DNA of 44,555 nt from a virus (taxonomy: Duplodnaviria; Heunggongvirae; Uroviricota; Caudoviricetes): the IMG/VR virus record IMGVR_UViG_2734482571_000013, one strand, 5' to 3'. The notes beneath the pieces were generated by a model, which ran no database searches, was not told the DNA's origin, and worked only from the letters and a program-made list of their open reading frames with translations. The translations under genes were made by a program, and so were the position numbers. Position 1 is the stretch's first letter, and the number at the start of each line of letters is the position of its first letter. This document shows positions 16,309 to 43,500 of the stretch, piece by piece.

Positions 16309-16598
16309 TGGTGAATTTACGTAAAGCGGCTAAAGGCCAGATGTGCCAGATCAGAATCCCTGGCTACTGCAATCACAATCCCGAAACCTCTGTGCTGGCG
16401 CATTACAGGCTGGCGGGGACGTGCGGAACAGCGACAAAACCACATGATATGCAGGCGGCGATAGCCTGTAGCTCATGCCACGATCTAATCGACGGGCGGG
16501 TAAAAACCAGCGATTACACCAAAGAAGAATTGCGCCTGATGCATGCTGAAGGGGTTTTTCGCACACAAGAAATCTGGAGAAAGAAAGGTCATTTATGA
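16308..16598 (+). CDS. YbcO-like Cys-rich putative nuclease (DUF1364, 96 aa)
   Basis: Conserved Cys/His pattern CQIRIPGYCNH...CSSCHDLID; nin-region position before Q. Confidence 0.65.
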   Translation: MVNLRKAAKGQMCQIRIPGYCNHNPETSVLAHYRLAGTCGTATKPHDMQAAIACSSCHDLIDGRVKTSDYTKEELRLMHAEGVFRTQEIWRKKGHL

Positions 16599-17137
16599 TT
16601 TACCCAACGAATACAGGAAAAAGCGGAGAACACCTTCGCCTCACCACGCTGGAAAGTGTCTGGATTCAGGGAAAACTACGTATGTGGGGGCGCTGGTCGT
16701 ATATTGGCGGTGGCAGGTCAGGGAATATGTTCAATCAGTTGTTGGCATCCAAAAAACTGACGAAAACAGCCATTAATGAAGCCCTGCGCAGAATGAAAAA
16801 AGCGGGAATAGAGAAAGCTGAGCTGGAAGCGTTTTTGCGAGAGATGATCAACGGCAAGCAAAAGAGCTGGCTGGCGCATTGTACTGATGCAGAGGCGTTA
16901 TGTATTGATCGAGTCATAAGTGAGGTGCTGGCAGAGCATCCAGGATTGATTTGCATTCTCCGGCAACGCTATGAAGGGCGGGGGATGACTAAGCGCAAAA
17001 TGGCTGAATTGCTAAATGATGCACACCCAGAGTGGTGTTTTAGCACATGCGAAAAACGGATTGCTAATTGGTTAGCTGTTGCTGAGTATGCCCTATATAT
17101 TCCCATGCGTGAATCATTTGCTGAGAAAATGGCTTGA
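16595..17137 (+). CDS. Late-gene antiterminator Q-like protein (180 aa)
   Basis: N-terminal WIQGKLRMWGRWSYIGG resembles the conserved N-terminal motif of lambdoid Q-family antiterminators; followed by intrinsic terminators and the lysis cassette. Confidence 0.65.
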   Translation: MIYPTNTGKSGEHLRLTTLESVWIQGKLRMWGRWSYIGGGRSGNMFNQLLASKKLTKTAINEALRRMKKAGIEKAELEAFLREMINGKQKSWLAHCTDAEALCIDRVISEVLAEHPGLICILRQRYEGRGMTKRKMAELLNDAHPEWCFSTCEKRIANWLAVAEYALYIPMRESFAEKMA

Positions 17138-17216
17138 TTTCTTACGTATAAACTGCTTCAATTTTGCTATGCTTCGCAAAGCTGTATCGCGAGGCGGATT
17201 GCAGACATGGACATCG

Positions 17217-17243
17217 TAAAAAAACCGCTTAATGCGGTTTTTT
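17217..17243 (+). terminator. Intrinsic terminator downstream of Q (A-run, ACCGC/GCGGT stem, T7 run)
   Basis: aaaaaaaccgcttaatgcggttttttt; symmetric A/T flanks suggest bidirectional function; candidate tR'. Confidence 0.6.
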
Positions 17244-17564
17244 TACGTCAGGAAAGCAGGGGAGAATGCTGCTAGTTGGGCAACTGGTCTTTCTGCTCCA
17301 AATTATAACAGAGACCAGTTATAGTTTCGGTGCTGTGTTTTTTTTACAATATTGTGATAACACATTGCTGGCGGGAGTTTTGATATTTCTTGGCAGGGGC
17401 TGATGATGCGTTATCCTGATGTCGTCAACTCATATAAAATGAGATGAGAGATCATTGCAGGGTGGTTTGTAATTCGCTGTTTAGCGGGACAATATGTTGT
17501 CTGATACAAGACACCCGACGCCTCAGATTACTATAATAAAGACGAAGCATCCTTTGTATTGACC

Positions 17565-17590
17565 AACCGCCTGTTTAGGCGGTTCTTTTT
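17565..17590 (+). terminator. Intrinsic terminator (AACCGCC/GGCGGTT stem, T5 run)
   Basis: aaccgcctgtttaggcggttcttttt in AT-rich non-coding region between Q and lipoprotein genes. Confidence 0.55.
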
Positions 17591-18122
17591 GGGCTGGTTT
17601 ATTGTATGCCAAATGATTATTAAAAAGGTTGTGTTAATAACAAGATCCGAAATAATATGCCTGCATATTTTTATCTTGCTTATATTCTGCATATTGTGCA
17701 TAGCAGGCTCATCCCTGCAATCAAAACTGTATGATGAGTATTTTTTGTTTTCCTTTTTTCCAGTCATCTGATGATGACCTGCTTCTTTTTAATCCGGATC
17801 GACATCAGTTTTTTAAGATAATTCCTGCGAGTTATATGCATAAATGCCACAAACTCCGCATTTTATGTGGTTGGGAGTTGCCGGGCGCGCAGTGAGTTTG
17901 CTAAGAAAACTCCTGCATGGTGAATCCCCCTGTGCGGTGGGGTGATACCATTAACCTTTTCTGTCGCCGACAGGTATCACGAACATTTTGTTCACCGGGA
18001 GGCACCCGGCACCATGCACTTCAATAGATTCTCTCCACATTATGGATATTCTTTCAGAATATCCCACGCAGACTTTGTGTAAATGTTAACAAATGTGCGT
18101 TTTATTTGATCTGATTCGCTGT

Positions 18123-18152
18123 TTGAGCGTCCAAAACAACGGTATATATAAT
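18123..18152 (+). promoter_or_regulatory. Putative sigma70 promoter for lipoprotein moron
   Basis: TTGAGC (18123-18128), 18-nt spacer, TATAAT (18147-18152); GAGGA Shine-Dalgarno then ATG 18182. Confidence 0.4.
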
Positions 18153-18181
18153 CCTTTACTATATGACATATGTGAGGAAAA

Positions 18182-18610
18182 ATGGGTTTTCGTAGCGCAT
18201 CAATTCTTACGTTGATTATTAGTGGGATTATTATCGGGTGCACTGATGCTGTATCGACAAATTATCATGACCGTACATCATATTACTCCGATAAAGCAAT
18301 AGAGACACAGTATGTGAGTTCATCTGAACGTACTTCTGATGTTAGTGAGGATATCCGTCTGTATGCCCATCAAATCAAGAGCGCCATCGAAAAACAGTTC
18401 GGGGATGCGAGTAAGTATTCAGGAAAAGAGTGTACACTGAGAATGCATATGGCCCCGAATGGCCTTCTACTGGAGGTTAAAAGAGAAAGTGGAGACCTCG
18501 ATTTATGTCGTGAAGCGATGAATGCGATAAAGAATGCTGATATACCTGCCCCCCCTTCGCCGGAAGTATATAAAGTATTTCAAAATGGGGTGCTGGATTT
18601 TAAACCCTGA
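18182..18610 (+). CDS. Lipoprotein with TolA domain-III-like C-terminus (142 aa)
   Basis: Signal peptide with lipobox IIGC; C-terminal HQIKSAIEKQFGDASKYSGKECTLRMHMAPNGLLLEV...PPSPEVYKVFQNGVLDFKP closely parallels the TolA C-terminal domain as I recall it (…IKSAIE…CTLRI…LDFKP). Confidence 0.75.
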   Translation: MGFRSASILTLIISGIIIGCTDAVSTNYHDRTSYYSDKAIETQYVSSSERTSDVSEDIRLYAHQIKSAIEKQFGDASKYSGKECTLRMHMAPNGLLLEVKRESGDLDLCREAMNAIKNADIPAPPSPEVYKVFQNGVLDFKP

Positions 18611-18760
18611 TATTTATTGTTTTGTAATAAACGGTTTCGGCTTAGGTTTGTTCTGACACAGCTACGGCACTGAGCTAAATTTAGCGGATAGTCAGCTCTG
18701 AGCCAGTGGCGGACGTAACAACTACTATTGCTGAGATTTTAATGGATTGAGGAGCAAGAA

Positions 18761-19156
18761 GTGGGATTAAAGAAAATCGTTATGTTGACTTTTTGGGTCG
18801 GTTTTGTTGCGGGATGCACACCTTTACACCCTTCAGATTGCCACAAAACTACTGCTACAGGTAGTTGCAGTTCAGGACGCTGGGATGATCAGGATGAATG
18901 GGGGGCGCAAGCGCGGGGAATCAGAGCTGCAATTAATGCCAAACTTGATGAGCCGCATAACTGGAAAGGGAAAAAATGCAGGTTGCATATGGAATTCTCT
19001 CAGGATGGCACGGCGTTAAAAATATCTACCAGTAACGGTGATAAAGCCTATTGCGAAGCGATAAAGTCCGCAGCTCATAAAGCCAAATTTCCGGCCTTCA
19101 ACAATCCGGAAGTCTACAGAGATTTTCAGAAATCTGGCTTTGACATGCGAGGTTAG
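18761..19156 (+). CDS. Second lipoprotein with TolA domain-III-like C-terminus (paralogue, 131 aa)
   Basis: GTG start with GAGGAG Shine-Dalgarno; lipobox VAGC; C-terminal KKCRLHMEFSQDGTALKIS...NNPEVYRDFQKSGFDMRG aligns with the upstream paralogue. Confidence 0.7.
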   Translation: MGLKKIVMLTFWVGFVAGCTPLHPSDCHKTTATGSCSSGRWDDQDEWGAQARGIRAAINAKLDEPHNWKGKKCRLHMEFSQDGTALKISTSNGDKAYCEAIKSAAHKAKFPAFNNPEVYRDFQKSGFDMRG

Positions 19157-19407
19157 CTCTTCAATTACTATATCTCATTCATAGCAAACTGACAGATTTG
19201 ATGATGTTCTATATACGAAACCTGTGATGTCAAGTCTGAGCTAATACAAATAAACATAATATCAGAGAAATACATTTTATTAGCTCGCTACGGCGAGCTT
19301 TTTATATTGCATCGTCTCCAGCATATATATCAATTAAGGCTCTGATTGATGTGTCTGAAAGCCTACACATAATAACTATGCCATCCGTTCCGTGCGGAGG
19401 TGAGGCT

Positions 19408-19623
19408 ATGAAATCCATGGACAAAATTTCAACAGGCATTGCCTACGGCACCTCCGCAGGCAGTGCTGGCTACTGGTTTTTACAGTTGCTCGATAGAGTA
19501 ACTCCGTCACAGTGGGCTGCAATCGGTGTGCTGGGTAGTCTGGTATTTGGCCTGCTGACGTACCTGACAAACCTTTATTTCAAGATTAAAGAAGATAAGC
19601 GCAAGGCTGCGAGAGGTGAATAA
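19408..19623 (+). CDS. Class II holin, S21-type pinholin (71 aa) with dual start MKSM
   Basis: GGAGGTGAGG Shine-Dalgarno; [26 protein letters not shown] two-TMD architecture; TAATG overlap with endolysin. Confidence 0.8.
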
Positions 19624-20120
19624 TGCCTCCATCATTACGAAAAGTCGTTGCTGCTGCTATTGGTGGCGGAGCAATTGCTATAGCATCAGTGTTAATCACT
19701 GGCCCAAGTGGTAACGATGGTCTGGAAGGTGTCAGCTACATACCATACAAAGATATTGTTGGTGTATGGACTGTATGTCACGGGCATACAGGAAAAGACA
19801 TCATGCTCGGTAAAACGTATACCAAAGCAGAATGCAAAACACTCTTGAATAAAGACCTTGCCACTGTCGCCAGACAAATTAACCCGTACATCAAAGTCGA
19901 TATACCGGAAACAACGCGCGGCGCTCTTTACTCGTTCGTTTACAACGTGGGTGCTGGTAATTTCAGAACATCGACGCTTCTTCGCAAAATAAACCAGGGC
20001 GATATCAAAGGCGCATGTGATCAGCTACGTCGCTGGACATATGCTGGCGGTAAGCAATGGAAAGGTCTCATGACTCGTCGTGAGATTGAGCGTGAAGTCT
20101 GTTTGTGGGGTCAACAATGA
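19623..20120 (+). CDS. SAR endolysin (R21-like lysozyme, 165 aa)
   Basis: N-terminal Gly/Ala-rich weakly hydrophobic SAR segment [20 protein letters not shown] followed by lysozyme domain; downstream of pinholin. Confidence 0.85.
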
Positions 20121-20574
20121 GCAGGGTAACCGCGATTATCTCCGCTCTGGTTATNNNNNNNNNNNNNNNNNNNNNNNNNNNNNNNNNNNNNNNNNNNNNN
20201 NNNNNNNNNNNNNNNNNNNNNNNNNNNNNNNNNNNNNNNNNNNNNNNNNNNNNNNNNNNNNNNNNNNNNNNNNNNNNNNNNNNNNNNNNNTTAATGCACT
20301 CGATGCTAAATACACGAAGGAGTTAGCTGATGCGAAAGCTGAAAATGATGCTCTGCGTGATGATGTTGCCGCTGGTCGTCGTCGGTTGCACATCAAAGCA
20401 GTCTGTCAGTCAGTGCGTGAAGCCACCACCGCCTCCGGCGTGGATAATGCAGCCTCCCCCCGACTGGCAGACACCGCTGAACGGGATTATTTCACCCTCC
20501 GGGAACGACTGGTAATGATGCAGGCCCAACTTGAAGGTGCTCAGCAATACATAACCGAGCAGTGTTTAAAGTAA
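20117..20574 (+). CDS. Rz i-spanin (interrupted by assembly gap; frame differs across gap)
   Basis: N-terminus [12 protein letters not shown] before gap; after gap ...[40 protein letters not shown]...; ATGA overlap with endolysin stop. Confidence 0.7.
20155..20290. other. Assembly gap (136 N) inside Rz
   Basis: Run of N. Confidence 1.
20330..20515 (+). CDS. Rz1 o-spanin lipoprotein embedded in +1 frame of Rz (61 aa)
   Basis: Signal peptide with lipobox VVGC, proline-rich mature region [15 protein letters not shown]. Confidence 0.75.
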   Translation: MRKLKMMLCVMMLPLVVVGCTSKQSVSQCVKPPPPPAWIMQPPPDWQTPLNGIISPSGNDW

Positions 20575-20711
20575 AATCTTAACTACAATATGATTCATTT
20601 TGATGATTGTTTCATAAGGAACAGTGAAGTAAGATCTAAGAGGAGTTAAATTTTATACAGTATAATCATAATATTGCAGCAAGGTGGTTATAATTGAAAG
20701 AATATTTAGAT

Positions 20712-22169
20712 ATGAATACATCTCATGTAAGAGTTGTTACTCATATGTGTGGGTTCCTGGTTTGGCTCTATAGTCTTTCAATGTTGCCACCAATGGTTGT
20801 AGCATTGTTTTATAAAGAAAAAAGCCTGTTCGTTTTCTTTATAACTTTCGTTATATTTTTTTGCATTGGTGGCGGAGCGTGGTATACAACTAAGAAATCT
20901 GGCATTCAATTACGTACCCGTGATGGGTTTATTATAATTGTAATGTTTTGGATTTTGTTTTCTGTTATTAGTGCATTCCCTTTATGGATTGACTCAGAAC
21001 TTAATTTAACGTTCATTGATGCTCTGTTTGAAGGGGTTTCTGGAATAACAACAACAGGAGCAACTGTAATTGATGATGTTAGTTCATTACCTCGGGCATA
21101 TTTGTACTATCGGTCACAGTTAAATTTTATAGGTGGTTTAGGAGTTATTGTTCTGGCGGTTGCAGTATTGCCATTATTGGGTATTGGTGGTGCAAAGCTT
21201 TATCAGTCAGAAATGCCGGGGCCATTTAAGGATGACAAACTCACTCCCCGCCTGGCCGATACGTCACGGACACTGTGGATAACTTATTCTTTATTAGGTA
21301 TTGCTTGTATTGTCTGTTATAGACTTGCAGGAATGCCTTTGTTTGATGCTATTTGTCACGGGATTTCCACAGTTTCGCTTGGTGGTTTCTCAACTCATAG
21401 CGAGAGTATCGGATATTTTAATAACTATTTGGTTGAGCTGGTGGCTGGTTCTTTTTCCCTGCTATCGGCTTTCAACTTCACTCTTTGGTATATTGTTATT
21501 AGCAGAAAAACGATAAAACCTTTAATCAGAGATATTGAACTTCGTTTCTTTCTGTTAATAGCCTTAGGGGTGATCATTGTTACCTCTTTCCAGGTCTGGC
21601 ATATAGGTATGTATGACTTGCATGGAAGTTTTATTCATTCGTTTTTTCTTGCCAGCTCCATGCTCACTGATAATGGTTTAGCTACGCAGGATTATGCAAA
21701 CTGGCCCACGCACACGATAGTGTTTTTGCTGTTGTCAAGTTTCTTTGGGGGATGTATAGGTTCAACCTGTGGTGGAATTAAGTCACTTCGATTTCTTATA
21801 CTTTTCAAACAAAGCAAACACGAGATAAATCAGCTTTCTCATCCCAGAGCGTTGTTGAGTGTAAATGTAGGAGGGAAGATAGTTACAGATCGTGTAATGA
21901 GGTCTGTATGGAGTTTCTTTTTTCTTTATACTCTCTTCACGGTGTTTTTTATACTGGTGTTAAATGGTATGGGATATGATTTTCTTACATCATTTGCAAC
22001 AGTGGCTGCATGTATTAATAATATGGGATTAGGTTTTGGGGCTACTGCATCGTCATTCGGAGTGCTTAATGACATTGCAAAATATTTAATGTGCATAGCT
22101 ATGATTCTTGGTCGCCTTGAAATTTATCCTGTTATTATATTGTTTTCAGGTTTTTTTTGGCGCTCCTAA
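20712..22169 (+). CDS. trkG: TrkG potassium uptake transporter (Trk family, 485 aa from MNTSHVRV)
   Basis: Polytopic membrane protein; translation matches Rac TrkG as recalled; AT-rich relative to flanking phage genes. Confidence 0.85.
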   Translation: MNTSHVRVVTHMCGFLVWLYSLSMLPPMVVALFYKEKSLFVFFITFVIFFCIGGGAWYTTKKSGIQLRTRDGFIIIVMFWILFSVISAFPLWIDSELNLTFIDALFEGVSGITTTGATVIDDVSSLPRAYLYYRSQLNFIGGLGVIVLAVAVLPLLGIGGAKLYQSEMPGPFKDDKLTPRLADTSRTLWITYSLLGIACIVCYRLAGMPLFDAICHGISTVSLGGFSTHSESIGYFNNYLVELVAGSFSLLSAFNFTLWYIVISRKTIKPLIRDIELRFFLLIALGVIIVTSFQVWHIGMYDLHGSFIHSFFLASSMLTDNGLATQDYANWPTHTIVFLLLSSFFGGCIGSTCGGIKSLRFLILFKQSKHEINQLSHPRALLSVNVGGKIVTDRVMRSVWSFFFLYTLFTVFFILVLNGMGYDFLTSFATVAACINNMGLGFGATASSFGVLNDIAKYLMCIAMILGRLEIYPVIILFSGFFWRS

Positions 22170-40559: not shown

Positions 40560-43500
40560 ATGGGTAAAGGCAGCAGTAAGGGGCATACCCCGCGCGAAGC
40601 GAAGGACAACCTGAAGTCCACGCAGCTGCTGAGTGTGATCGATGCCATCAGTGAAGGGCCGGTTGAAGGTCCGGTGGATGGATTAAAAAGCGTGCTGCTG
40701 AACAGTACGCCGGTGCTGGACAATGAGGGGAATACCAACATCTCCGGCGTCACGGTGGTGTTCCGGGCAGGTGAGCAGNNNNNNNNNNNNNNNNNNNNNN
40801 NNNNNNNNNNNNNNNNNNNNNNNNNNNNNNNNNNNNNNNNNNNNNNNNNNNNNNNNNNNNNNNNNNNNNNNNNNNNNNNNNNNNNNNNNNNNNNNNNNNN
40901 NNNNNNNNNNNNNTGCTGAACAGTACGCCGGTGCTGGACAGTGAGGGGAATACCAACATCTCCGGCGTCACGGTGGTGTTCCGGGCAGGTGAGCAGGAGC
41001 AGTCACCGCCGGAGGGATTTGAATCCTCCGGCTCCGAGACGGTGCTGGGTACGGAAGTGAAATATGACACGCCGATCACCCGGACCATCACGTCGGCAAA
41101 CATCGACCGTCTGCGCTTTACCTTCGGTGTACAGGCACTGGTGGAAACCACCTCAAAGGGAGACAGGAATCCGTCNNNNNNNNNNNNNNNNNNNNNNNNN
41201 NNNNNNNNNNNNNNNNNNNNNNNNNNNNNNNNNNNNNNNNNNNNNNNNNNNNNNNNNNNNNNNNNNNNNNNNNNNNNNNNNNNNNNNNNNNNNNNNNNNN
41301 NNNNNNNNNNNNNNNNNNNNNNNNNNNNNNNNNNNNNNNNNNNNNNNNNNNNNNNNNNNNNNNNNNNNNNNNNNNNNNNNNNNNNNTCATCGATGTGAAA
41401 CAGTGCTACCCGAACACTGCACTGGTCGGCGTACAGGTGGACTCGGAGCAGTTCGGCAGCCAGCAGGTGAGTCGTAATTATCATCTTCGCGGGCGCATTC
41501 TGCAGGTGCCGTCGAACTATAACCCGCAGACGCGACAATACAGCGGTATCTGGGACGGAACGTTAAAACCAGCATACAGCAANNNNNNNNNNNNNNNNNN
41601 NNNNNNNNNNNNNNNNNNNNNNNNNNNNNNNNNNNNNNNNNNNNNNNNNNNNNNNNNNNNNNNNNNNNNNNNNNNNNNNNNNNNNNNNNNNNNNNNNNNN
41701 NNNNNNNNNNNNNNNNNNNNNNNNNNNNNNNNNNNNNNNNNNNNNNNNNNNNNNNNNNNNNNNNNNNNNNNNNNNNNNNNNNNNNNNNNNNNNNNNNNNN
41801 NNNNNNNNNNNNNNNNNNNNNNNNNNNNNNNNTCATCGATGTGAAACAGTGCTACCCGAACACGGCACTGGTCGGCGTACAGGTGGATTCGGAGCAGTTC
41901 GGCAGCCAGCAGGTGAGCCGTAATTATCATCTTCGCGGGCGCATTCTGCAGGTGCCGTCGAACTATAATCCGCAGACGCGGCAATACAGCGGTATCTGGG
42001 ACGGAACGTTAAAACCGGCATACAGCAACAACATGGCCTGGTGTCTGTGGGATATGCTGACCCATCCGCGCTATGGCATGGGGAAACGTCTTGGTGCGGC
42101 AGATGTGGATAAATGGGCGCTGTATGTCATCGGCCAGTACTGTGACCAGTCGGTGCCGGACGGCTTTGGCAGCACGGAGCCGCGCATCACCTGTAATGCC
42201 TGGCTGACCACACAGCGCAAGGCGTGGGATGTGCTCAGTGATTTCTGCTCGGCGATGCGCTGTATGCCGGTATGGAACGGGCAGACGCTGACATTCGTGC
42301 AGGACCGACAGTCGGATAAGGTGTGGGCCTATAACCGCAGTAATGTGGTGATGCCGGATGATGGCGCGCCGTTCCGCTACAGTTTCAGCGCCCTGAAAGA
42401 CCGCCATAATGCCGTTGAGGTGAACTGGATTGACCCGGATAACGGCTGGGAGACGGCGACAGAGCTTGTGGAGGATACGCAGGCCATTGTCCGTTACGGT
42501 CGTAACGTCACGAAGATGGATGCCTTTGGCTGTACCAGCCGGGGGCAGGCACACCGCGCCGGGCTGTGGCTGATTAAAACGGAACTGCTGGAGACGCAGA
42601 CCGTGGATTTCAGCGTGGGTGCTGAAGGGCTTCGTCATGTACCGGGCGATGTCATTGAAATCTGCGATGATGACTATGCCGGTATCCGCACCGGCGGGCG
42701 CGTGCTGGCGGTGAACAGCCAGACCCGGACGCTGACGCTCGACCGTGAAATCACGCTGCCATCCTCCGGCACCACGCTGATAAGCCTGGTTGACGGTGAG
42801 GGTAATCCGGTCAGCGTGGAGGTCCAGTCCGTCACCGACGGCGTGAAGGTAAAAGTGAGCCGTGTTCCTGACGGTGTTGCTGAATACAGCGTGTGGGGGC
42901 TGAAGCTGCCGACGCTGCACCAGCGATTGTTCCGCTGCGTGAGTATCCGTGAGAACGACGACGGCACGTATGCCATCACCGCCGTGCAGCATGTGCCGGA
43001 AAAAGAAGCCATCGTGGATAACGGGGCGCACTTTGACGGCGACCAGAGCGGCACGGTGAATGGTGTCACGCCGCCAGCGGTGCAGCACCTGACTGCCGAA
43101 GTCACCGCAGACAGCGGGGAATATCAGGTGCTGGCGCGCTGGGACACGCCGAAGGTGGTGAAGGGCGTGAGCTTCCTGCTCCGTCTGACCGTAACAGCGG
43201 ATGACGGCAGTGAGCGGCTGGTCAGCACGGCCCGGACGACGGAAACCACTTACCGCTTCACACAACTGGCGCTGGGGAACTACAGGCTGACAGTCCGGGC
43301 AGTAAATGCGTGGGGGCAGCAGGGCGATCCGGCGTCGGTATCGTTCCGGATTGCCGCACCGGCAGCGCTGTCGCGGATTGAGCTGACGCCGGGCTATTTT
43401 CAGATAACCGCCACGCCGCATCTTGCGGTTTATGATCCGACGGTACAGTTTGAGTTCTGGTTCTCGGAAAAGCGGATTGCGGATATCAGGCAGGTTGAAA

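Follow-up and report, generated by a model that had tools for sequence, protein, structure and literature searches.

What would a prophage gain from keeping, directly in front of its lysis genes, two small genes whose products each resemble one domain of a host envelope protein? The question is raised by IMG/VR virus record IMGVR_UViG_2734482571_000013, a stretch of 44,555 nucleotides (hereafter the window) that, taken as a whole, is a complete Rac-like lambdoid prophage of the class Caudoviricetes. The two genes, here called A and B, sit between a Q-like antiterminator gene and a holin/endolysin/spanin cassette, as judged from PHROG matches. A preliminary description, made from the letters alone, had flagged an interval that begins at 18123, the first base of a promoter-like site, and ends at 19156 with the stop codon of gene B. 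We find that A and B are predicted lipoproteins, each with a complete domain III of TolA (TolA-III). They may well be lysogenic-conversion ('moron') decoys that intercept group A colicins and the g3p protein of filamentous phages, a reading that we favor from sequence and argument and hold with limited confidence.

Two short predicted lipoproteins built around TolA domain III

Gene A (18182–18610, + strand) is an open reading frame (ORF) for a 142-amino-acid (aa) lipoprotein, with an ATG start codon and the Shine–Dalgarno sequence GAGGA at 18174–18178. Gene B (18761–19156, + strand) encodes one of 131 aa, with a GTG start and the Shine–Dalgarno sequence GAGGAG at 18749–18754. The layout is the same in both: a signal (residues 1–20 in A, 1–19 in B), a linker (21–53 and poorly conserved in A; 20–43, conserved and cysteine-containing in B), and TolA-III (about 54–142 in A, 44–131 in B). 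The start of B is set by an in-frame stop (TAA) eleven codons before it; plasmid homologues carry ATG at the equivalent position.

Signals were judged by a rule-based reading of the sequence, in which the lipobox follows the pattern [LVI][ASTVI][GAS]C. The N-terminus of A reads MGFRSASILTLIISGIIIG-C20, with R4, the hydrophobic core ILTLIISGII and the lipobox I-I-G-C20; the codon of the lipid-bearing Cys20 lies at 18239–18241. That of B reads (GTG)MGLKKIVMLTFWVGFVAG-C19, with K4 and K5, the core IVMLTFWVGF, the lipobox V-A-G-C19, and the codon of Cys19 at 18815–18817. Across both families, the Gly-Cys pair of these lipoboxes (IIGC in A, VAGC in B) shows a conservation of at least 90%. Lipoproteins are sorted to the outer membrane when the residue after the lipid cysteine (+2) is not Asp. 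This residue is Thr in A and in the B of the window, and Ala in plasmid and other B homologues. Since Thr, not Asp, occupies the +2 position, outer-membrane sorting is predicted for A and B, and this is where both should reside.

As for the remainder of each protein, both exceed the PF06519 cut-off of 25 bits by a wide margin, with 82.6 bits for A (E-value 2.4e-23) and 54.6 bits for B (1.3e-14). When searched against the PDB using phmmer, residues 55–142 of A align without a gap to E. coli TolA 334–421 in several solved structures (5e-28), and residues 51–129 of B align to TolA 341–419 (5e-9). The resemblance is thus a full domain match far beyond chance, and not low complexity. The AlphaFold2 models run helix, strand, strand, helix, helix, strand, with a confidence score (predicted local distance difference test, pLDDT) of 80–97 per ten-residue block over the domain (block means of 82–95 in A), and they are disordered over signal and linker. 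The B model superimposes on TolA-III 3qdp with a root-mean-square deviation of 1.0 Å over 86 columns and a target-normalised TM-score of 0.92, and it also matches the TolA-III chains 2x9a_B (with If1 g3p), 1tol (M13 g3p), 4g7x_B (CTXphi pIII), and 6s3w (TolB peptide). The disulfide cysteines of TolA, C363 and C388, correspond to C84 and C109 in A and to C73 and C98 in B, and are invariant across both families. The preliminary description had claimed lipoprotein signal peptides and the TolA C-terminal domain for both proteins; the charged starts, hydrophobic cores, and lipoboxes uphold the first claim, and the Pfam matches, the PDB matches, and the fit of B to 3qdp uphold the second.

The rest of TolA is missing. 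The domain I anchor, through which TolA is coupled to TolQ and TolR, is absent from A and B, which have a lipoprotein signal of 19–20 residues instead; the helical domain II, rich in Ala, Lys, and Glu and some 265 residues long, is absent as well, its place being taken by a linker of 24–33 residues. Both genes lie outside a ybgC-tolQRA-tolB-pal operon, the K-12 operon being the one compared. When set beside the TolA-III of the Tol-Pal system (TolA about 314–421; PF06519; structures 1s62, 3qdp, 1tol, and 2x9a), A and B are therefore alike in fold, disulfide cysteines, and beta-3 edge. They differ from TolA proper in lacking domains I and II, in lying outside the tol-pal operon on mobile elements, and in a lipoprotein signal that should anchor the domain in the outer membrane, with no coupling to the proton-motive force.

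Those who annotate such genomes should keep in mind how easily this architecture is hidden. RefSeq (PGAP) labels A as a 'tolA, incomplete; missing N-terminus' pseudogene at window positions 18350–18610 (RefSeq locus L001, 6451–6711), and it starts B late, at 18782 (Met8; WP_001348108.1; span 18782–19156, or 6883–7257 in L001). The one treatment removes and the other truncates a lipoprotein signal, so both signals are lost from view. The TolA equivalog profiles are covered by A at positions 293–386 of 387 and 265–362 of 362, and more narrowly by B. Neither protein reaches the NF007065 cut-off of 213 bits (A 107.8, B 53.7), and B, at 47.2 bits, stays below the TIGR02794 cut-off of 59.45. A passes the latter with 75.6 bits, by way of the last 98 profile positions only; that its C-terminal domain suffices for this probably explains the misleading pseudogene label.

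Two edges of TolA-III deserve attention, as they are the ones to which ligands bind. The beta-3 strand (A415–K420) is the site of beta-strand addition for g3p-N1, colicin N, and the N-terminus of TolB; it binds through backbone hydrogen bonds and tolerates sequence change, and proline at D418 or K420 abolishes binding (PMC4339652). Colicin A binds the opposite edge, formed by L375–P380, L392, and the cation-pi lysines K368, K379, and K396 (PMC3365938). At the C-terminal edge, where TolA reads APLDFKP, A has GVLDFKP and B has SGFDMRG; A keeps L417–P421 (LDFKP) exactly, and in the alignment neither protein has a proline at the equivalents of D418 or K420. On the colicin A face, A keeps L96, L97, K100, and K117, with E98, V99, and M113 as conservative changes; in B, the residues E78, S89, and H106 replace all three cation-pi lysines. 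We regard A as closely mimicking the TolA-III of E. coli along the two binding edges, and B as an older, widely mobile lineage in which the beta-3 edge is kept and the beta-2 or colicin A face is different.

The linker of B is unusual in its own right. It reads PLHPSxCHKTTAxGSCSSGRWDDQDEWG (window 18818–18889, residues 20–43), contains two extra cysteines, and is under very strong purifying selection, and AlphaFold2 confidence over it is low despite this constraint. We set aside the idea that its GRWDDQDEWG segment is a colicin TolB box; W47 aligns with the aromatic Y340 of TolA helix 1, and the DG[ST]GW core is absent.

Ancestry and spread of the two families

Are A and B copies of each other, or of the host gene? 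The preliminary description had regarded them as tandem paralogues, a duplication with divergence. Over TolA 334–421, A is identical to TolA at 52 of 88 positions (59%) and B at 27 of 88 (31%), and A and B agree with each other at 25 of 88 (28%). In pairwise searches, A groups with TolA and with TolA-like short proteins, not with B. A local tandem duplication is ruled out by the 28% between A and B as against the 59% between A and TolA, and by the separate distributions of the two families. Because A is much closer to TolA than to B, and because the two differ in taxonomic range and occur apart from one another, the pair is best read as two lineages that have come to lie side by side. The suggestion of two specificities, which was drawn from the supposed duplication, loses that basis. 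A difference in specificity between A and B is nonetheless plausible on other grounds, as A keeps most of the colicin A face and B has lost its three cation-pi lysines.

At the nucleotide level, A and the E. coli tolA gene are 58.7% identical, and only 40% at third codon positions; A is therefore not a recent fragment of the host gene, and the split is old. These two values, an intact ORF, and a ratio of nonsynonymous to synonymous substitution rates (dN/dS) below 1 led us to reject a recent capture or pseudogene of host tolA. The same observations bear on a more dismissive explanation of the pair, that it is non-functional debris, A being a fragment of host tolA and B a decaying relative. Its attraction lies in the PGAP label and in the TIGR02794 score of A, which is above the cut-off over the last 98 positions. 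Debris would hardly be expected to keep, in both ORFs, a Shine–Dalgarno sequence, a start codon, a signal peptide, and a lipobox, the last of which is retained in divergent homologues too, nor would it fit the age of the split or the fact that 51 of 72 short relatives have the same lipoprotein and TolA-III layout. Between A and its 66% identical variant, the domain has a dN/dS of 0.25 and the linker one of 0.57; for B, the values are 0.06–0.15 (domain) and 0.01–0.10 (linker). Both genes are under purifying selection, with dN/dS of 0.06–0.25 in the domains and values well below 1 in both families. The debris explanation is contradicted by the selection and architecture data, and we give it hardly any credence.

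Of 5426 complete E. coli genomes, 771 carry the A–B region at an identity of at least 99%; together with the purifying selection, this indicates that the genes are maintained. Among phages, the region was found in one deposited genome, and B occurs in only one INPHARED record. Members of the A family are restricted to E. coli and Shigella. Its 66% identical variant stands alone in the stx slot of Stx-like prophages, where the order is Q, tRNA genes, A, nanS-p, and holin. In three such retrieved loci (L012–L014, 2636–5429), the full order reads Q, a TfpB-like gene, an AraC-family regulator, two tRNA genes, the A variant, nanS-p, DUF1378, DUF826, and holin.

The B family is far more widely spread, being 65–89% identical across Citrobacter, Enterobacter, Klebsiella, Raoultella, Leclercia, Serratia, Pantoea, and other genera. 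In 30 species-representative genomes of the Enterobacterales, its members are lone genes at unrelated chromosomal sites, and no conserved gene partner was found; the 118 flanking ORFs in these 30 genomes match 108 different Pfam families. The Serratia marcescens homologue lies between nrdD/nrdG and a GmrSD-type (PF03235) and HEPN pair (L009 and L010, 5001–7736), a neighborhood that looks like a defense island.

Plasmids carry B as well. An 88% identical gene lies directly 3' of the nikB relaxase gene on I-complex conjugative plasmids. On pO157-type plasmids, a 3' remnant of nikB is fused to a B homologue, and this junction is 99.5% identical to that of the I-complex plasmids (loci L003, 3216–6426; L004, 5995–6426; and plasmid NC_017907.1, 52762–54188). 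The nikB–B junction occurs on 593 plasmids, I-complex and pO157-type together; in about 264 further plasmids, with a nikB of about 85% identity, only the nikB portion of the probe finds a match.

When 1.84 billion cluster representatives were searched exhaustively and without a profile, 130 relatives were found, 72 of them 100–170 aa long. Many have the same C-terminus as TolA, ...FKNAPLDFKP, and a lipobox-like motif is combined with the TolA-III layout in 51 of the 72 short ones. Those sampled, from Klebsiella, Enterobacter, Erwinia, and Dryocola, are named by domain only. Their layout places A and B in a broad class of short lipoproteins that have TolA-III as their only domain. In the BFVD set of viral structures, no TolA-III fold was found at E-values up to 0.001. 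A full-text literature search found no functional work on TolA-III lipoproteins encoded by phages or plasmids, and the only mention that it returned is a passing remark of 2010 on a prophage 'TolA' in Cronobacter sakazakii (PMC2833190). A 'TolA' remark on EDL933_2012 (PMC11125564) was discarded, as the gene is listed there as a tail fibre protein. What is already known, then, is the domain family and its annotation by domain; what is new is the architecture and the genetic setting of a known domain.

Carriage in prophage late regions and on large virulence or conjugative plasmids such as pO157 is reminiscent of other envelope proteins, as bor/iss and traT have a similar distribution. One might accordingly suppose that A and B are envelope-modifying conversion factors that have nothing to do with colicin or phage entry, with the TolA-III fold serving as a scaffold only. 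Such a factor could be an extra outer-membrane tether, a modulator of Tol-Pal in cell division, or a host-interaction or serum-resistance lipoprotein like Bor, Iss, or TraT. The constraint on the B linker (dN/dS 0.01–0.10, extra cysteines) hints at a role beyond tethering and would suit this idea. It fits less well with what has been retained of TolA-III, namely the ligand-binding edges and the core. There is, moreover, no sign in the sequence of a surface-exposed or host-directed activity and no conserved gene partner, and we regard a purely envelope-modifying role as improbable.

The late-region slot and its transcription signals

What does the position of the pair in the prophage add? The left border of the slot is the Q-like late antiterminator gene (16595–17137, + strand; phrog_753, 'anti-termination protein Q-like', E-value 2e-79), which appears as a DUF1133 family protein in the RefSeq annotation of a locus that is 98–99% identical to the window. 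It is preceded by NinB-like and HNH-like genes. The right border is the lysis cassette (19408–20574, + strand; PHROGs and RefSeq), with a holin ORF at 19351/19408–19623 (+ strand), an endolysin ORF at 19623–20120 (+ strand), each matched by the corresponding PHROGs, and spanin genes; trkG follows. The preliminary description had likewise placed the pair between Q and the lysis genes, and the matches to phrog_753 and to the holin and endolysin PHROGs agree with it. In the matching RefSeq locus, the cassette genes are named essD, rrrD, and 'lysis protein'.

The phage vB_EcoS-683R6 has both Q (89%) and the holin gene (95%) in common with the window, and between them it carries tRNA-Thr and tRNA-Gly instead; homology stops at about 17199 and restarts at 19397. 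From this we conclude that window positions 17200–19396, approximately, form a variable cargo slot. In vB_EcoS-683R6, the cargo is tRNA-Thr(TGT) and tRNA-Gly(TCC) (retrieved locus L015, 1397–1547). The phage mEp460_ev081, on the other hand, has the A–B module behind a different Q, and the DNA that it shares with the window begins at a mosaic joint at about 17990, inside the STnc100-family element described below. Thus, between the flanking genes of related phages, the A–B module is either present or swapped for other cargo. This is the same slot that, in lambdoid phages, holds late cargo between Q and S (stx, nanS-p, lpxR, nmpC, lc, and tRNA genes). The cargo in A and B is a mimic of a host envelope protein, unlike a toxin, an enzyme, a porin, or a tRNA. 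Base composition does not set the module apart as it might a moron cassette, since the GC content of A (42.4%) and of B (46.0%) differs little from that of Q and the holin gene (47%) or of the window (46.7%).

Transcription signals surround the pair. Upstream lies an STnc100-family element, a prophage small RNA or late leader (17885–18071, + strand; Rfam RF02076, 86.6 bits against a gathering score of 47, E-value 3.5e-18). STnc100 is prophage-encoded, related to PasD, and located downstream of Q (bioRxiv 10.64898/2026.05.13.724894). The same element stands 5' of A–B in mEp460_ev081, where it scores 114 bits. Among the loci with TolA-III genes, it was found beside them only in the window and in mEp460_ev081, with none at the plasmid, chromosomal, or A-variant loci. 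In the window copy, the usual terminator hairpin of STnc100 is replaced by GGATATTC...GAATATCC, without a U-run. The 3' end of the element overlaps a double hairpin followed by the U-run UUUUAUUU (18044–18107, + strand; -18.8 kcal/mol, z -3.83, none of 200 shuffles as good), which is likely to be an intrinsic terminator for transcripts arriving from upstream.

The preliminary description gave the first gene its own sigma-70-like promoter. A site of this kind is present (TTGAGC-18 nucleotides-TATAAT; 18123–18152, + strand; 10 of 12 consensus positions); it lies about 30 nucleotides 5' of the start codon of gene A and is identical in mEp460_ev081. It stands as a consensus match only, for the region has 11 promoter-like sites, which is not above the 7.3 ± 2.9 of shuffled controls. 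Between A and B, there is no comparable terminator-like structure (RNA fold z 0.33). After B and 5' of the holin gene, one finds an intrinsic-terminator-like hairpin with a T-run (19282–19305, + strand; AGCTCGCTACGGCGAGCT then TTTTAT), whose hairpin at 19282–19299 folds at -13 kcal/mol (z -4.2). The predicted order of signals (a hairpin with a U-run, a promoter-like site that matches by consensus only, A–B, and a terminator) is the textbook layout of a moron.

The position of the pair also invites a different explanation, in which A and B are inhibitors of the Tol-Pal system that act late in infection. The action of Q would lead to their transcription together with the lysis genes; at the outer membrane, their TolA-III domains would then out-compete TolA for the N-terminus of TolB or for Pal, Pal mobilization would be blocked, and the outer membrane would weaken. 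At burst, the outcome would be a faster or fuller lysis, a release of periplasmic contents, or more outer-membrane vesicles. After the late-leader element, the A–B genes indeed come first, and the holin gene follows them directly; Stx-like prophages, which let out their cargo on lysis, carry A variants in the stx slot. The beta-3 strand that A keeps is the TolB-binding site, and mutants that block it show a full tol phenotype with leakage (PMC4339652); overproduction of TolA-III in the periplasm makes E. coli release periplasmic proteins (PMC6195910). The lysis cassette, with its holin, SAR-like endolysin, and spanin genes, is complete by itself, however, and the bracket of promoter and terminator suggests an expression that is independent of Q. 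The affinity of TolA for TolB is weak, at about 40 µM. Lone B homologues on plasmids and chromosomes are, moreover, under purifying selection without lysis genes nearby, where a weakening of the membrane would be a cost. We keep the inhibitor explanation in consideration on account of the late-operon position and the variants in the stx slot, and we think it rather unlikely.

Some further features of the right border may be recorded here. By eye, the N-terminus of the holin (MKSMDK; 19408–20120 region) offers a possible dual start, and the hydrophobic N-terminus of the endolysin resembles a signal-anchor-release (SAR) sequence; the two together look like a pinholin and SAR-endolysin pair of the phage 21 type. 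The window contains runs of N (masked sequence) at 20155–20290, 40779–40913, 41176–41386, and 41583–41832. The first of these interrupts the spanin genes (Rz/Rz1-like), whose integrity is not readable from the window. Directly 3' of the lysis cassette lies the potassium-transporter gene trkG (20694–22169, + strand), with a low GC content of 37.7%; it is a second cargo gene of the late region, and its arrangement is the same in the Rac prophage of K-12.

Possible decoys on the outer membrane

How might such decoys work? A lipoprotein on the inner face of the outer membrane would display a free TolA-III in the periplasm by way of its linker of 25–35 residues. In TolA, this domain is the hub that g3p-N1 and the translocation domains of the group A colicins (A, E1, K, and N) grasp by beta-strand addition, and invaders bound to it become coupled to the energized TolQRA motor. 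The copies in A and B would be on the wrong membrane, without domains I and II and with no link to the motor, so captured ligands should stall under the outer membrane. Expression in the lysogen and a protective effect are both presumed steps of this scheme, and A and B probably cover different sets of ligands.

The decoy reading draws strength from three observations. The first is that the genes persist under purifying selection in places without lysis genes. The second is carriage by plasmids. Phage If1 uses I pili as its receptor, and the If1 g3p has been solved in complex with TolA-III in PDB entry 2x9a. The third is the affinity gap: invader ligands bind TolA-III at about 1 µM and the TolB N-terminus at about 40 µM (PMC4339652), so that a moderate dose of decoy could block invaders without shutting down Tol-Pal. 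The preliminary description had already suggested a decoy that excludes colicins and phage; the idea is plausible, and it fits the occurrence of each gene apart from lysis genes, on plasmids and at chromosomal sites.

Three known systems offer comparison, of which the engineered periplasmic TolA-III is the nearest functional analogue. In the 1993 work of Levengood-Freyermuth, Click and Webster, wild-type E. coli with a free periplasmic TolA-III reportedly became tolerant of colicins E1, E2, E3, and A, and at the same time leaky. There, as in A and B, a lone domain is exported; the engineered form is soluble and overproduced, whereas A and B are natural, predicted to be lipid-anchored, diverged, and probably expressed at a low level in lysogens. 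Co-expression of TolAIII is in use as a means of releasing periplasmic proteins (PMC6195910; Wan and Baneyx 1998 cited there).

The second comparison is with Cor (phi80, N15, and mEp167) and Llp (T5), small outer-membrane lipoproteins of phages that protect their carrier from phages and colicins of the same import route. Cor and Llp inactivate the receptor FhuA, whereas A and B would mimic a periplasmic co-receptor and bind the invader itself. No sequence relationship of A or B to Cor or Llp was found; A and B match a separate family, phrog_5772, and have no PADLOC model. The third is the immunity to superinfection conferred by g3p. Boeke, Model and Zinder reportedly observed in 1982 that expression of filamentous-phage g3p leads to phage resistance and colicin tolerance. 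The interaction of g3p with TolA-III is the same, with the roles exchanged: there, the phage ligand occupies the host TolA, and here a copy of the TolA domain would occupy the ligand.

Several points weigh against the decoy. The promoter is a consensus match only, of a kind not enriched over shuffled sequence, and the position in a Q-dependent late operon may mean that expression peaks in lytic growth, when protection is pointless. By the same precedent that shows tolerance, free TolA-III also renders cells leaky, so a decoy would be costly. The pili that filamentous phages require are usually absent from the hosts of the chromosomal and prophage copies. A decoy in an arms race might be expected to diversify, and B is highly conserved across genera; the strong constraint on its linker, which hints at something more, is left unexplained by a decoy. 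Without the three cation-pi lysines, B may even be unable to bind colicin A. Finally, neither protein matches any family in PADLOC-DB at E-values up to 0.1, and phrog_5772, which covers both, is listed as 'unknown function'.

More tentatively still, TolA-III lipoproteins in general could be a widespread, mobile, single-gene form of immunity, a 'co-receptor decoy' against Tol-dependent bacteriocins and pilus-specific filamentous phages. Its carriers throughout the Enterobacterales would be prophages, plasmids of the I-complex and pO157 types, and small islets in the chromosome. On a conjugative plasmid, the decoy would compensate for the exposure to phages that comes with the plasmid's own pilus, and A and B together would widen the range of ligands covered.

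The consequences depend on which explanation holds. Should A and B be inhibitors of Tol-Pal, they would represent an undescribed phage-encoded inhibitor of this system, relevant to the release of vesicles and toxins from Stx-like prophages. If they are decoys, they would embody an undescribed principle of defense, in which a copy of a co-receptor domain is supplied and no surface receptor is removed or masked. As decoys, they would help to account for the unequal sensitivity of natural E. coli to colicins and filamentous phages, would bear on therapeutics based on bacteriocins or phages that use the Tol route, and would provide natural TolA-III variants with which to dissect how the domain discriminates between TolB and parasitic ligands.

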